Sequence record: PP359570
Origin: Escherichia phage ALITA
Length of the DNA: 64,000 bases
Strand: one strand, 5' to 3'
Numbering within the stretch: the first letter of the stretch is position 1; every line of letters starts with the position of its first letter. A model generated the notes under the pieces. That model had not been told where the DNA came from and made no database searches. It worked only from the letters and a program-made list of their open reading frames with translations. Below, one piece after another: positions 5,327 to 17,341 of the stretch. The position numbers were made by a program, and so were the translations under genes.

Positions 5327-5438
5327 TAATGAGAATCATTTTCGTTTGTAAATGAGAATCATTATCATTTAACTATGTAAGTGATAATCATTCTCAGTAA
5401 GAGAATGAGAATCATTAGCAAATGAGAATTTTTCTCAT
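5327..5438. promoter_or_regulatory. cluster of five Fur-box-like AT-rich palindromic motifs
   Basis: AATGAGAATCATT(ATCATT), GTGATAATCATTCTC, AATGAGAATTTTTCTCATT; one copy differs from the Fur core ATGATAATCATTATC at one position. Confidence 0.45.
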
Positions 5439-5439
5439 T

Positions 5440-6200
5440 TACAGAATAACGCGCAGGGGCGGTGTTTGTCTCGCGCTCCCGTGTCCCCTCGCCATACAAT
5501 AAGAATAGCATAACCAATAACAAAAGCAAGCGATTATTTTTATCTTTACATTTCTTTACAAATTTATTTTAGACGAGCTACCGGCGATCAACCTTCCAAC
5601 CAGTGCCCCCTGGTATGTTAGCCCCGCCTTTACGCCGTGGGGTGGCGTTTCCTCTTCTGTATGTAAAACAGTATAAGCCCGATCCCTGGGCTTGTCAAGA
5701 TTATTTTTTGTTTTCTTGCCAGGATAGGACACCTAACCAAAAATACATGTCGCCCCGCGCCCCTGGTGGGATCTTGCTTTCCCCGCCGCCACTGCAAGCC
5801 CATAAATAACCATCAGCGAACGGATCAAAGTGATCTATCTCTTCCACCTTATGATCGCCCAGGTTGAGAACGGTTTCAACCTTTAAGCCCGTTGCGCTTG
5901 CTACCTGGTGCACCGTGCCGCCTTGCCAGCCCAGTGAGTGCATGAGATGTAAAGAAGTATTTGTCATGGTATCGCCCTTTCTTTGTTGTGCGCCCTGGTT
6001 GGCGCGGTAGAAAGATGATAGCCGTTTCCTTCATATATAGCAAGCAAAAAAGAAATGAAAAAAAGATTAAAAAATGGTTGACGTTCCTCACCTGGTAGCG
6101 TAGTATTCATCTTGTCGAGGGGGGCAAGACACAACGACAATAAACAATAGGCGGGTGCAATGCAAGACGGGCAAAGGTGAGGATCTCCACAATCCACCGT
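5440..6200. other. G+C-rich island inside otherwise AT-rich phage DNA
   Basis: Visibly GC-rich (gcgcaggggcggtg..., ccccgcgcccctggtggg...); composition unlike flanking DNA. Confidence 0.5.
5701..5967 (-). CDS. hypothetical protein (88 aa) in GC-rich island
   Basis: ORF-track ORF, only sizeable ORF in island; no recognisable motif. Confidence 0.25.
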   Translation of the reverse strand: MTNTSLHLMHSLGWQGGTVHQVASATGLKVETVLNLGDHKVEEIDHFDPFADGYLWACSGGGESKIPPGARGDMYFWLGVLSWQENKK

Positions 6201-6339
6201 CACAATAACATTACTTATAAAAGGTTGATAACGATGATCAAGAAAGAAAATAGCTTGACGGTTGGAACGATTAACGCTATCATTCTTGCCGTTCCATTTT
6301 GGATTGTAGTTGCGGTTATTATTTTCTAAAAAAATATTC

Positions 6340-6397
6340 TTGACAACGTTTTTTAATCTGATAAGATGTATCACATAGGGCGGCAATAGTGCCGCTC
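6340..6397 (+). promoter_or_regulatory. PeSL-like cassette: sigma70-type promoter + 5' stem-loop
   Basis: TTGACA-16 bp-TAAGAT then cacataGGGCGGCAatagTGCCGCtc hairpin, SD, ATG at 6420; approx. Confidence 0.6.
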
Positions 6398-6419
6398 ATA
6401 ACAGAAGAGAGAAATAATC

Positions 6420-6692
6420 ATGGCATCATATAGCGCATCAATGATTGTAAAGGGTATCACTGGTAAACCTATGCGCGGTGGCGGATCTTTCGCTAACATC
6501 AATATTGATGGACGTTTATCCCTGGACGCAGCGATCACAGTGGCACGGGAAACATTTAAAAAAGAATGTAATTTCAATAAACAAGATTATCTCGGTTTTG
6601 CTATTGAAAAAACCGCGCGCTTTGTGGATTATAAAAGCCCGAAAATGATCGACACTACACTAAAAGCGCAAGATGTAGCGTTTTTGCTTTAA
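6420..6692 (+). CDS. hypothetical early protein (90 aa)
   Basis: Immediately downstream of PeSL cassette; SD agaagagag. Confidence 0.6.
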   Translation: MASYSASMIVKGITGKPMRGGGSFANINIDGRLSLDAAITVARETFKKECNFNKQDYLGFAIEKTARFVDYKSPKMIDTTLKAQDVAFLL

Positions 6693-6695
6693 GAC

Positions 6696-6756
6696 TTGAC
6701 ACTGAAAAATAATTTGATAATATATACCACATAAGGCGGGGAAATGGTTTCCCGCC
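6696..6756 (+). promoter_or_regulatory. PeSL-like cassette
   Basis: TTGACA, AT-rich -10, GGCGGGGAAATGGTTTCCCGCC hairpin; approx. Confidence 0.6.
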
Positions 6757-6778
6757 AAATCAAAGAAAGGGTAATGCA

Positions 6779-7141
6779 ATGAGCAAGCAAATCAATACTA
6801 TCATGTTTAATCTGGTATCTTTCCGCGATGACGTGAAAAACCTTTCGCGTGATGCAGTGGATGCACGGATCGAAAGCTATCGCACACAGATCGCAACGTT
6901 ACCGCTGAAACGTGATCAACATGCCGCTAATATGATGCTTGATGCTATGATTAAAAAGATGATTCAATGTGATCTTACCCTGGCTTATGAATATGCTGGC
7001 GATCTCTTTGTAACATATAGCAAGCCCGTTCCAGGTATGAGCACCACGGAAGAATTGCATGCCTTAAATCTGCGACAAGATGCATGGGATAACATGCGCC
7101 GTGTTATGGTATGGGTAGAAAGCGGTAAAATTTACGAATAA
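6779..7141 (+). CDS. hypothetical early protein (120 aa)
   Basis: Downstream of PeSL cassette; SD aaagaaaggg. Confidence 0.6.
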   Translation: MSKQINTIMFNLVSFRDDVKNLSRDAVDARIESYRTQIATLPLKRDQHAANMMLDAMIKKMIQCDLTLAYEYAGDLFVTYSKPVPGMSTTEELHALNLRQDAWDNMRRVMVWVESGKIYE

Positions 7142-7147
7142 AAACGG

Positions 7148-7201
7148 TTGACATTGCACTAAAACCTGATAAGCTATCTTAAAGCGGGAATAGTTCCCGC
7201 T
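7148..7201 (+). promoter_or_regulatory. PeSL-like cassette
   Basis: TTGACA...gataag -10-like, aGCGGGAAtagTTCCCGCt hairpin; approx. Confidence 0.55.
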
Positions 7202-7219
7202 TACATAGGATAAAACTTT

Positions 7220-7366
7220 ATGAAACAATATGTAATGAGTATTCACACCAAAAACGGCGCTACTGTTACGACTCCGGCACGGTTTGCACTTGTAAACCGT
7301 TGCAAGAGACTAAAACGAGAGCTAAAAAACAACCGTGCAACGGGCTTTAAACGCTGGGGAGGATAA
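7220..7366 (+). CDS. small basic protein (48 aa)
   Basis: Below track cutoff; ATG 19 nt after cassette hairpin; MKQYVMSIHTKNGATV...; codon-counted. Confidence 0.4.
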   Translation: MKQYVMSIHTKNGATVTTPARFALVNRCKRLKRELKNNRATGFKRWGG

Positions 7367-7368
7367 TC

Positions 7369-15483: not shown

Positions 15484-15485
15484 CT

Positions 15486-15514
15486 TGCTTTATTTCTTCT
15501 GTTAACTTATAGTT
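15486..15514 (+). promoter_or_regulatory. degenerate PeSL-like promoter (hairpin lost)
   Basis: TTGCTT-17-TATAGT then cgcgtagggc remnant of the cacatagggcgg box; approx. Confidence 0.35.
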
Positions 15515-15558
15515 ATCGCGTAGGGCAAACAATTTTAAACGGTAAACGAGGAATCACC

Positions 15559-15942
15559 ATGAGCAATATCATCAACCTGGCAGCGACTGTAAACGGTAAA
15601 GACTTTAACGGCGCTGTAGACCGTGATCCTATGTGGTGCTTATCAGTGTTTAAAGGCGATCTGGTTGAAGTTAGAACAACCGAAGGTTATAGCGACGATT
15701 ATAAATGCGAGATTCATTTACACAACTGGTACACGGGTAAAACTTATGCGCTGAATCACGCGTTTATCGGGAAAATTGAATATCGCGAGATGATCGACGA
15801 AGAAACGGGGCAAGATTTTAGCGAGCATGTTTATATTCGTTCAGAAACATTAGCCGAACGTTTGATCGAGAAAATGAAAGCAAAAAATAAAATTAATTTA
15901 TCTCATTGGATTGATATAACAAACGATCCGGCTTATAAGTAA
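15559..15942 (+). CDS. hypothetical protein (127 aa)
   Basis: ORF-track ORF; SD aaacgaggaa. Confidence 0.55.
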   Translation: MSNIINLAATVNGKDFNGAVDRDPMWCLSVFKGDLVEVRTTEGYSDDYKCEIHLHNWYTGKTYALNHAFIGKIEYREMIDEETGQDFSEHVYIRSETLAERLIEKMKAKNKINLSHWIDITNDPAYK

Positions 15943-15957
15943 ATAACATTTCACACC

Positions 15958-15985
15958 AGGGCGCACAAAGCGCCCTTTCTTTTTA
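15958..15985 (+). terminator. rho-independent terminator (GGGCGC...GCGCCC family)
   Basis: caGGGCGCacaaaGCGCCCtttcttttt; approx. Confidence 0.65.
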
Positions 15986-16185
15986 CCTAAATAAAGATGA
16001 TAGCTTTTACCTATCAAAAACGTTCACCGAAAAAAGTGAATAGATCGCGGTATCGAACTAATCAAGCAACAGATGAACAACCATACCATGAAGGTCATAA
16101 GGCGCTTACAACGTGTTTTAGACCGCTTATTTTTAATTTCTTCATGTAACTATCTGGCAAAAACAGCCTTTTTCTTGTCTTTCCT

Positions 16186-16267
16186 CTTAAATGATAATCA
16201 TTCTTATTTATAGCTGATTATTTATGCAATTTATTGCATAATGCAATAATGATAATCATTCCTAACT
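16186..16267. promoter_or_regulatory. two Fur-box-like motifs
   Basis: AAATGATAATCATTCTTATT and AATAATGATAATCATTCCT; approx. Confidence 0.4.
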
Positions 16268-16269
16268 TA

Positions 16270-16555
16270 AGACCATCTAACCTATAAAATAATAAGTTAT
16301 CTAACTAAATTAAAACTAATTATCTCACTTTTATTTATAACTTACTGTTACTATCTCATTGATAACCTTATATTAAACAACAATAACTAATATAAATCAT
16401 TACTAAGCTAAATATAATCTATCTAACCCTTAAAACTACAATTATAATCTATCTAATTGTTGCACAAAGTAACTATTAAATTGTTAGTAACATTACTAAA
16501 TAATTCACATCCTATCTATTTATGATCTAATCTTTACCTTTCTATCTATTACCTA
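16270..16555. repeat. dispersed ~9 copies of (T/C)ATCT(A/C)W(T/C) motif, incl. ATAATCTATCTAA twice 20 bp apart
   Basis: ccatctaacc, gttatctaact, ataatctatctaaccc, ataatctatctaattg, cctatctattt, ttctatctatt; no ORFs. Confidence 0.5.
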
Positions 16556-16648
16556 AATAACCATTTCATACAGTAATTATTCCATATGGTAATCATTTCA
16601 TACAATAATTATAACAAGAAATATAATTCGCAAGCGTATCATTAGCAG

Positions 16649-16814
16649 CCTATGCCGGACACATAGGCGGCTAATAATAACGCAACTACACACCCCACAT
16701 AATAACCATCAACGATGGTTATTATTTGTGTTTATGTAGCTTGCAACAATTGCAAGCGCAACAATATACATGGTATATTGTATTCCCTTACATTGTTGCG
16801 GTGCGTTATTATTA
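16649..16814. other. nested inverted-repeat structure (outer 12-bp stem enclosing hairpins); candidate structured ncRNA or origin element
   Basis: gcctatg-ccggaca-cataggc; aataaccatc-aac-gatggttatt; gcttgcaa-caa-ttgcaagc; outer gctaataataac ... gttattattagc; approx. Confidence 0.4.
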
Positions 16815-17117
16815 GCTAATGTTTAGAACATTGGCTATAATATAAGCTGCATATAATAAACTATGCAATAATAAACATGGTGAATAATGACACCGATGAT
16901 CATAATGCGCCACCCTCCAGGGGGCGCTATGTAAACACAAAGAAATCTTTCTTGTCAAGAAAATATTGCCACTATTGCGCAAAATTATTTTTATCTGAAT
17001 AGATGATTTTTCATACTATTGCCCCTATAACATACCTCATTTGTTGAGCCTACTTTCTTAAAAGCGCAATAAATCAGAATTATCTTGATTTTTAGGGCGT
17101 TTTATAGTACAGAAAGT

Positions 17118-17142
17118 ATGCAAATGATAATCATTATCAGCT
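17118..17142. promoter_or_regulatory. Fur-box-like motif (closest to consensus)
   Basis: cAAATGATAATCATTATCag: 16 contiguous bases identical to the Fur consensus core; approx. Confidence 0.45.
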
Positions 17143-17299
17143 ATCTTCCACGGGTAGCACTATTTCACGCCAGATCATTTCATTTGGCAAGGTGTATATA
17201 GATGTTTAGACTTGCCAAGCCATTGATTTACTTAGAATTTATCTGTTTTGTTGTGAGTAATACCTTTCTTACTCAGAAAATAATCAAAAGTCTTATAAG

Positions 17300-17341
17300 T
17301 CATTGAATGATAATACAAATGATAATTATTCTCATTGATAT
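17300..17341. promoter_or_regulatory. Fur-box-like motif pair
   Basis: gAATGATAATacAAATGATAATTATTCTCATTgata; approx. Confidence 0.35.

Follow-up and report, generated by a model that had tools for sequence, protein, structure and literature searches.

Arrays of Fur-box-like motifs beside the early region and within the terminal repeat of Escherichia phage ALITA

Fur boxes are the textbook operators of bacterial iron genes; what, then, do close likenesses of these operators do in the non-coding DNA of a virulent phage? The question is raised by Escherichia phage ALITA (sequence record PP359570), of which a stretch of 64,000 nucleotides, hereafter the window, was analyzed. Positions 5000-17600 are 95-97% identical, over 98-99% of the length, to Escherichia phages inny, Paula, Nernie and ESCO9, and the window is therefore assigned to a virulent phi92-like myovirus (Justusliebigvirus, Stephanstirmvirinae) with a genome of about 147-148.6 kb. 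A preliminary description of the window reported clusters of Fur-box-like palindromes on both sides of a block of small early genes and offered three explanations: iron-responsive control of early transcription by host Fur, titration of Fur, and a phage protein of similar DNA specificity. Of that interpretation, the Fur-box-like identity is sustained in silico, and control of early genes at the promoter level is not. The motif matches the Fur box in identity and architecture, is strongly enriched and holds its position in related phages; the early promoters are free of it, and no Fur was found in the phage DNA searched. The motifs are probably selected binding sites for host Fur. We further infer that Fur binds them and that they serve as a roadblock or boundary; the reading preferred here, tentative and held at just short of even confidence, is that genuine, selected Fur sites act as an iron-dependent roadblock or boundary, both at the edges of the early region and within the terminal repeat.

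The 13-mer core of the motif, AATGAKAATCATT, is present in six exact and three single-mismatch copies, solely at 5328-5416, 16190-16260 and 17123-17336; on both strands together, it has 13 matches compared with 0.71 expected, a number reached by none of 100 shuffled sequences. All distinct units, nine altogether (five in the first region, at 5325-5442, and four in the second, at 16187-17339), are 7-1-7 inverted repeats, TGAKAAT-N-ATTMTCA. Compared with the 19-bp consensus GATAATGATAATCATTATC, those of the first region deviate at 3, 3, 4, 3 and 6 positions, and those of the second at 5, 4, 2 and 5. The earlier count of five copies in the first region is thus confirmed, and the total of at least ten motifs holds if registers offset by 6 bp are counted apart, the number of distinct 7-1-7 units being nine. 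The copy at 17120-17138, GCAAATGATAATCATTATC, which had been singled out for its likeness to the enterobacterial consensus, is indeed identical to it in the final 16 bases and has two mismatches over 19 bp.

A position weight matrix (PWM) trained on ten Fur-repressed promoters of E. coli K-12 only (fepA-fes, fepD-entS, fepB-entC, fhuA, cirA, fecI, fecA, ryhB, fiu and exbB, fetched as 54.5 kb of K-12 DNA) converges on GATAATGATAATCATTATC. With this matrix, the phage units score 14.2-22.7 bits (the top ones 22.7, 21.4, 19.5, 18.3 and 17.5), compared with 15.8-20.7 bits for the training sites, and the ten top matches of the 64-kb window all lie inside the two regions. Conversely, when the matrix is built from the phage sites, the upstream regions of fepB/entC, ryhB, fhuA and fecI rank among its top matches in the 54.5 kb of K-12 DNA. 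The window contains 14 positions with at least 15 bits, compared with a mean of 0.415 and a maximum of 3 in dinucleotide shuffles; 13 of them belong to the two non-coding stretches at 5060-6419 and 16150-17638, 2.85 kb in total, and shuffling each AT-rich region alone gives ~0.01 sites. The check proposed with the preliminary description, a comparison of Fur PWM scores with shuffled sequence, therefore places both regions far above the shuffles, and the occurrence of the motif in two non-coding regions is borne out by core counts, PWM hits and shuffles alike. Chance or AT-richness as the source of the motifs is ruled out by the whole-window and local shuffles. In the complete genome of a close relative, VEcB (148,885 bp), every site that reaches 15 bits falls in one of the two homologous regions, apart from two singletons. 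When the 121-bp cluster was compared by blastn with 5,426 E. coli genomes, a database too large for a motif of such shortness to be informative, seven marginal matches (E ~1-4) of 26-32 bp were obtained, all unannotated.

The fine structure of the arrays is that of Fur clusters. In the left array, unit 1 (GTTAATGAGAATCATTTTC, 5325-5349; 3 mismatches) scores 19.5 bits and 15.6 bits in its 6-bp-offset register, and is followed by unit 2 (GTAAATGAGAATCATTATCATT, 5348-5372; 21.4 and 16.8 bits), a near-perfect TGAGAAT-C-ATTATCA, unit 3 (GTAAGTGATAATCATTCTCAG, 5377-5401; 17.5 and 15.0 bits), unit 4 (GAGAATGAGAATCATTAGC, 5401-5419; 16.6 bits) and the proximal unit 5 (GCAAATGAGAATTTTTCTCATTTAC, 5418-5442; 15.7 and 16.4 bits). 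The palindromes are spaced 17-29 bp. Six of the nine units have a second register 6 bp off (5325/5331, 5348/5354, 5377/5383, 5418/5424, 16187/16193 and 17315/17321), and overlapping sites 6 bp apart are characteristic of Fur clusters (Chen et al. 2007, PMC2189734). Three attributes of a Fur box accordingly coincide here: consensus match and PWM score within the range of host sites, the 7-1-7 inverted repeat and overlapping sites at a 6-bp offset. The E. coli operator clusters (fepB-entC, fepD-entS, fepA-fes, fhuA and ryhB; PMC2189734) share with the phage arrays the 19-bp consensus, the 7-1-7 arms and the 6-bp overlap, and the phage sites score equally well or better. The host clusters, however, overlap the -35 or -10 element of the regulated gene, whereas the phage arrays lie past the ends of transcription units and in the terminal repeat, and comprise up to five full units over 118 bp.

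Which protein binds these motifs can be approached from their distribution. A tblastn search of 1.47 Mb of phage DNA, including the window and the entire VEcB genome, with the E. coli Fur sequence (confirmed as PF01475) detects no Fur homologue at E <=1. In IMG/VR, at least 120 viral stretches contain two cores separated by 5-35 bp; the matches listed, to which the statements on IMG/VR are confined throughout, include T5 and T5-like phages, rV5-like phages and at least 109 stretches unrelated to either (GC content 0.30-0.64, 2-9 cores each), and some of the arrays fit the full 19-bp consensus perfectly. Array-bearing contigs among the unrelated stretches include L126 (10765-11325), L016 (14696-14798) and L101 (10740-10893). 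Clustering of the open reading frames (ORFs) within 3 kb of the arrays in the 120 stretches listed yields no common protein family except the terminase large subunit, found in 44 stretches, and candidate DNA-binding families occur near the arrays in at most 13 of the 120. The flanks of the 292 cores from the 109 unrelated stretches listed, which were not fixed by the search pattern, read T(0.71) G(0.72) M R upstream and M T(0.69) C(0.90) A(0.91) downstream; these correspond to the outer bases of two overlapping Fur 7-1-7 sites.

The same paired pattern was also scanned against one genome per bacterial species, where the matches listed come from Pelagibacteraceae, SAR86, Methylophilaceae, Mariprofundus, Massilia and Bacillales. 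In the SAR86, Caldibacillus and SAR11 cases examined, the genes immediately downstream of the pattern encode a TonB-dependent receptor, a FecCD permease or solute-binding proteins; in SAR86 the pattern stands between a TonB-dependent receptor and a periplasmic binding protein, and its Bacillales copies overlap a TTGACA. Among the matches listed, a locus common to dozens of SAR11 single-cell genomes (e.g. L158 2704-2744) carries two perfect Fur boxes, at a distance of 14 bp, immediately upstream of a solute-binding-protein gene.

Host Fur would be the most economical binder, because neither a Fur homologue in the phage DNA searched nor a shared phage DNA-binding family near the arrays listed was found. 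The Fur-box-like identity of the motif is strongly supported in silico from four sides, namely PWM scores, the 7-1-7 structure with 6-bp registers, positions kept across genera (see below) and counterparts at bacterial iron-uptake genes. That a phage-encoded protein recognizes the motif and the resemblance to Fur boxes is convergent or incidental, as had also been proposed, is very improbable and the least economical option. Tandem short palindromes 17-29 bp apart are typical of sites for repressors, terminase small subunits or partition proteins, and most proteins of the early block have no assigned function; against such a protein, the identical motif recurs in T5-like, rV5/phi92-like, T7-like and other phages with GC content from 0.30 to 0.64, no protein family common to the unrelated motif-bearing phages lies near the arrays listed, unconstrained flanks reproduce the Fur-specific arms and direct hexamer repeats, and the same pattern occupies bacterial iron-uptake promoters.

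The position of the left array relative to its surroundings is conserved. An alignment of the window with eight relatives (Phapecoctavirus, Klebsiella 05F01, Certrevirus phiTE and CR8, Mydovirus Mydo, a BIS47-like contig, Seunavirus GE_vB_MG and Henunavirus pEa_SNUABM_55) was expanded with IMG/VR relatives to 19 distinct rV5-like/phi92-like sequences, 18 of which carry one to four Fur sites of 16-21.6 bits located 195-215 bp left of the invariant CGCCGTGGGGTGGCG; the single exception is a recombinant devoid of the left half of the module. The hosts of the site-bearing relatives are E. coli, Klebsiella, Salmonella, Cronobacter, Pectobacterium, Erwinia and Proteus, and unit 5 is the positional counterpart of the single unit common to all relatives. 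To judge from the alignment, the arrangement is kept across two subfamilies and seven host genera despite unalignable flanks.

To the right of the array lie two predicted leftward sigma-70 promoters on the minus strand and a conserved non-coding element. P1(-), TTGACA-17 nt-TATACT (5670-5698; 11 of 12 matches), points through the element at the Fur array, and its hexamers and spacing survive sequence change in all relatives. P2(-), TTGCTT-16 nt-TATTCT (5502-5529), has the Fur array at about +53 to +170; relatives retain TTGCAA-17-TATATT, and in the Erwinia phage, by a reading of the alignment, GCAAGC is gone and TTGACC-17-GATACT stands at identical spacing. The leftward path from P1(-) and P2(-) leads to a GC-rich hairpin between P2(-) and the array (5447-5492, read off the sequence), on to the array itself and then to three ~70-bp AT-rich tandem repeats on the plus strand that adjoin it (5089-5307), each with a TTGAA-N9-TTCAA palindrome (TTGAAAATGAAAAGTTCAA; three copies compared with 0.14 expected). 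The hairpin is kept in position and variable in sequence among the relatives, and phiTE has an annotated terminator there. The annotation of phage inny describes the tandem repeats merely as 'repeat_region'.

The conserved element (5543-5667, 125 bp) is 76-97% identical by blastn across Vequintavirinae and Stephanstirmvirinae, with unalignable flanks, and is better conserved than the neighboring genes; it is considered non-coding because its ATG is not conserved. A conserved hairpin with a T-rich tail at 5615-5648 resembles a plus-strand terminator. Rfam (gathering threshold) and ARAGORN give no match in the window, and RNAalifold finds one or two compensatory pairs in the element on either strand, a weak covariation; candidate roles for the element are a small RNA, the priming of replication or the binding of a protein. 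A candidate plus-strand promoter at ~5495-5510 has a conserved -10-like hexamer and no -35. A further candidate, a 'TTGAAT-17-nAGAAT' promoter with a Fur box in its spacer, was rejected because, by the reading of the alignment, its GAAT is in phase with the Fur hexamers and position 2 of the -10 is not conserved.

The second region holds four units. A1 (TTAAATGATAATCATTCTTATTTAT, 16187-16211; 15.4 and 16.1 bits), kept in VEcB, and A2 (AATAATGATAATCATTCCT, 16245-16263; 14.2 bits, 18.0 bits in VEcB) lie 210-290 bp past the last early terminator, an intrinsic plus-strand terminator at 15958-15976 that marks the right end of the early block. The other two lie inside a direct terminal repeat of 343 bp, identified by homology to phi92: the 343-bp right terminal repeat annotated in phi92 (FR775895.2) matches window positions 17047-17389 at 96.8% with no gaps, which would place the physical genome ends at 17047 (left) and 17389 (right). 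As the window spans a single copy of this repeat, it appears to be a circularly joined or collapsed assembly that passes through it. Unit B (GCAAATGATAATCATTATC, 17120-17138), with 22.7 bits the window maximum, contains a perfect TGATAAT-C-ATTATCA at 17125-17139 and is also found in phi92 and 536P1; the inferred left end is 73 bp away, and 46 bp downstream of the unit lies the -35 of a promoter-like site at 17184-17212. Unit C (ACAAATGATAATTATTCTCATTGAT, 17315-17339; 18.3 and 17.4 bits) lies 50 bp from the right end and ~100 bp downstream of the same promoter-like site, and its placement relative to the end sequence AAAAT(T)CGCGTTA is identical in 536P1. In this Phapecoctavirus, whose alignment is patchy, sites occupy the three equivalent places, with 19.7 bits at the early-block border, 17.0 bits, and 15.7/19.1 bits ~50-75 bp before AAAAT(T)CGCGTTA. 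The Fur units of the terminal repeat are embedded in a longer ~37-bp repeat, ATrCAAATGATAATyATTmTCA...GGGG, at 17118-17154 and 17313-17349; a third copy, at 16887-16923 outside the terminal repeat, is degenerate and its Fur box has decayed.

Between the two regions, at 6200-16150, the plus strand encodes ~35 small genes, each with a near-consensus sigma-70 promoter: 20 plus-strand promoters have at least 10 of 12 matches, 18 of these with an exact TTGACA, roughly one per small gene. The annotation of inny gives ~25 small hypothetical plus-strand genes framed by the two non-coding stretches. This is the densest run of sigma-70 promoters in the window, which fits transcription by the host RNA polymerase, so the block probably consists of early genes, and the description of the clusters as flanking an early-gene block, with ~10 kb between them, is accurate. 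The block resembles the promoter-early stem-loop (PeSL) cassettes of T4-like phages (PMC2839356, PMC4122927) in having a strong sigma-70 promoter per small gene and some terminators, a likeness that concerns the flanked block and not the Fur motifs. The PWM scan finds no Fur site of at least 15 bits within 6200-16150 and no early promoter that overlaps a site; Fur is therefore not placed to control these promoters singly, and the proposed Fur control of early transcription finds no support at the promoter level.

Classical iron-responsive repression could instead be directed at the terminal-repeat promoter, at the P2(-) unit or at a small RNA from 5543-5667, any of which would then be expressed solely in iron-starved hosts. 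Units B and C, 46 bp upstream of the -35 and ~100 bp downstream of the promoter-like site at 17184-17212, the fixed distance of the proximal unit to P2(-) and the conserved element in 18 of the 19 relatives, and the hairpin at 5615-5648, which could end a short RNA, are consistent with such a role. It is nonetheless unlikely, given that no site overlaps a convincing -35 or -10, that the alignment contains no strong plus-strand promoter between the array and the conserved element, that the element has no Rfam match and weak covariation, that five tandem units far exceed the needs of an operator and that the neighboring genes have no iron-related annotation. The proteins encoded next to the arrays have no assigned function, with the exception of an endonuclease-family protein encoded at 2931-4337. 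This 468-amino acid ORF, directly upstream of the non-coding region, belongs to a phage endonuclease / HNH endonuclease family (phrog_681, E = 2e-92).

The reading preferred here is that host Fur would set the limits of early transcription. Iron-loaded Fur would bind the arrays with high affinity and with no need for a phage protein, and each overlapping 7-1-7 pair offset by 6 bp would accommodate two Fur dimers, bound from opposite sides of the helix. These pairs would be strung into arrays outside the early promoters, at the edges of the region transcribed by the host polymerase: on the left, five units in the path of leftward P1(-) and P2(-); on the right, two units past the last early terminator; and in the terminal repeat, two units, one on each side of a promoter-like site and 50-75 bp from each physical end. 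In the presence of iron, Fur would coat the arrays and form a protein roadblock or boundary that confines the host polymerase to the early block, so that antisense read-through into the upstream operon and read-through into and out of the terminal repeat would be silenced; under iron starvation, apo-Fur would depart and the borders would open. The boundary position is supported by phage T5, in which the motif likewise follows terminators, those of the pre-early genes.

Several considerations weigh against this proposal. All of it is read from sequence, with P1(-), P2(-) and the terminal-repeat promoter being predictions and the ends of the repeat being placed from phi92. A classical Fur operator covers part of the -35 or -10 of the gene under its control, which none of the sites here clearly does; no site overlaps a promoter-like site with at least 9 of 12 matches. 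To our knowledge, roadblocking by Fur is not an established mechanism, and the opening of the borders at low iron would bring no obvious benefit. Finally, the arrays of many metagenomic phages among the matches listed are located by terS/terL or near contig ends, which would favor a role at the terminus or in packaging over one in transcription.

The motif recurs in T5. A blastn search with the left cluster (5336-5439) gives a match to Tequintavirus genomes, and at 9468-9637 of T5 (AY587007) the motif coincides with 'direct repeat C copies 1-4' and 'palindromes E, G, H, I' and scores 15.1-20.6 bits. The T5 motif, TTTTTAAATGAGAATCATTATCATT, comes after the pre-early terminators and paired DnaA boxes, just left of the 7.9% nick. 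The Fur-like tandem units of T5 are conserved, beside paired DnaA boxes, in Tequintavirus EC122 and KPP2018. The sole model of two-step injection of T5 dates from 1968, the calculated shear point of first-step transfer (FST) is ~9618 and the stop is attributed to the DnaA boxes, with no mention of Fur (Davison, 10.1101/866236); neither in that work nor in the T5 record are the repeats called Fur boxes. More broadly, no description of Fur boxes in rV5-like, phi92-like or T5 genomes was found in the literature, the coverage of which was incomplete, so that an earlier description is possible.

A role at the genome termini or in DNA entry, in which Fur-bound sites would be structural signals for packaging, end protection or arrest of DNA entry and transcription control would be secondary, is the main rival to the boundary reading, and itself rather unlikely. 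Units B and C, 73 and 50 bp from the physical ends and kept in 536P1, speak for it, as do the T5 C repeats and palindromes, which span the FST shear point at ~9618 and, via the right terminal repeat, also come to lie ~500 bp from the right end. The left cluster is 12.0 kb from the inferred right end, that is, 8.1% of a 148.6-kb genome, the value for 536P1 is ~7.8% and the first-step transfer of T5 comprises 7.9%; this agreement is suggestive only and could be a coincidence. The window shares with the T5 injection stop signal (iss) region the tandem units of the repeat-C type and a long untranslated stretch that follows sigma-70-driven early or pre-early genes and terminators at ~8% from an end. 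In T5, however, the array lies inside a 10-kb repeat with paired DnaA boxes and nine 'DRD' repeats, whereas the window has a repeat of 343 bp that does not include the largest array, located 12 kb from the end; the DnaA boxes and a ~10-kb repeat are thus absent from the window. Specifically, no DnaA box (TTATCCACA, <=1 mismatch) was found in 5000-6500 or 16000-17700, near either cluster. Against such a role, Davison (10.1101/866236) favors the DnaA boxes as the T5 stop signal, two-step transfer, which depends on the pre-early proteins A1 and A2, has been demonstrated for T5 alone, a leading end and a stepwise entry of phi92-like DNA would be suppositions, and a cytoplasmic protein alone cannot halt DNA that is still outside the cell.

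The metagenomic arrays lend this terminus or entry role further weight. In the 35 full-length IMG/VR contigs among the matches listed, the arrays are biased toward the ends (median relative distance 0.13, Kolmogorov-Smirnov p = 0.0015), with 46% in the outer 10% of the contig compared with 20% expected. The region upstream of terS-terL-portal is the usual site of genome ends, and in several siphovirus-like contigs listed the arrays occupy the divergent region just upstream of these genes. Terminal repeats were not detected in the IMG/VR contigs listed, a point on the other side. The terminase relatives among the listed matches point to marine T7-like phages of the Roseobacter and Pelagibacter type. 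On a metagenomic phage contig (L072 7878-8000), two Fur boxes are followed, ~60 bp on, by a DnaA box, CTTGTGGATAAGTCT, the context of which is that of the T5 iss region (gataagtctgtggataac). From this pairing, Fur and DnaA boxes co-occur outside the T5 family.

In the most far-reaching reading, virulent phages with linear ends (T5-like, rV5/phi92-like, marine T7-like and others) would generally use arrays of host Fur boxes, acting in cis, to mark their ends and the border of the first-expressed DNA. Such a generalization is improbable on the sequences at hand; were it true, the arrays would be the injection stop signal of T5 or an essential part of it, Fur, an abundant iron-sensing host protein, would gate stepwise genome entry or end processing, and the phi92-like phage would have a T5-like 'first-step' segment of ~12 kb (8% of the genome).

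The titration proposal makes the arrays a decoy: ~9 strong units multiplied by hundreds of genome copies would titrate Fur and derepress host iron uptake for the benefit of phage metabolism. In the Fur titration assay (FURTA), many Fur sites act by copy number, and multicopy Fur boxes derepress the Fur regulon; the far-upstream Fur sites of ftnA counteract H-NS. The phage arrays resemble these cases, by analogy alone, as multiple Fur sites that act off the core promoter or by copy number, and their clustering, their quality above that of host operators and the lack of an evident promoter served agree with a decoy. Titration by phage DNA is physically plausible, yet a decoy does not require fixed positions relative to promoters, hairpins and genome ends, does not explain the arrays in T5-like phages, would provide just 9 units per 148 kb and confers a benefit that is a supposition. 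T5-like phages degrade host DNA early (T5 literature including Davison, 10.1101/866236), and derepression could therefore not be expressed there. This proposal is accordingly doubtful; the rivals that remain beside the terminus or entry role are possible in the order of classical repression or a small RNA, the decoy and a phage-encoded binder.

Host Fur sites on phage genomes have a precedent among temperate phages. The stx1 promoter contains a Fur box on a temperate phage. Another Fur box lies upstream of sitABCD on temperate lambdoid coliphages (PMC6969025), the sole phage Fur box found in the literature, within the incomplete coverage. These are single operators of prophage cargo genes, unlike the arrays of a virulent phage with no cargo gene. 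Phage Fur boxes have hitherto been known only as switches of prophage cargo; here, a virulent phage has better-than-host Fur-like arrays away from promoters, across genera and hosts, and the same arrays recur in the T5 iss region and in at least 109 unrelated stretches of uncultured phages. If Fur binds, the iron status of the host would be wired into the earliest lytic steps of many phage lineages, with a bearing on phage therapy in iron-limited tissue and on phage ecology in iron-limited oceans; the mechanism of T5 two-step injection would become testable with a fur mutant or an iron chelator; and, for rV5-like and phi92-like genomes, the arrays would offer a simple marker by which the edges of the early region and the termini could be annotated.

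The remaining observations concern the surroundings of the arrays and the database matches. Just inside the terminal repeat, ~800 bp at 16264-17046 are ORF-free and AT-rich (GC content ~0.30). This stretch contains four CTATCTA motifs at 16419-16548, with spacings of 30, 63 and 30, repeats of CATTTCATACA at 16558-16612 with 16-bp spacing, and long hairpins at 16696-16728, 16743-16799 and 16670/16802; its part at 16607-16761 is conserved near the assembled ends of Phapecoctavirus genomes. Three 'Campylobacter phage' records, A150, A110a and C3 (MG065639, MG065689 and MG065656), are 94-98% identical to this coliphage group over the entire region and are probably mislabeled or contaminant coliphages. 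'Acinetobacter phage vB_AbaM_ABPW7' and 'Pseudomonas phage PsgM04F' match Phapecoctavirus-type sequence.

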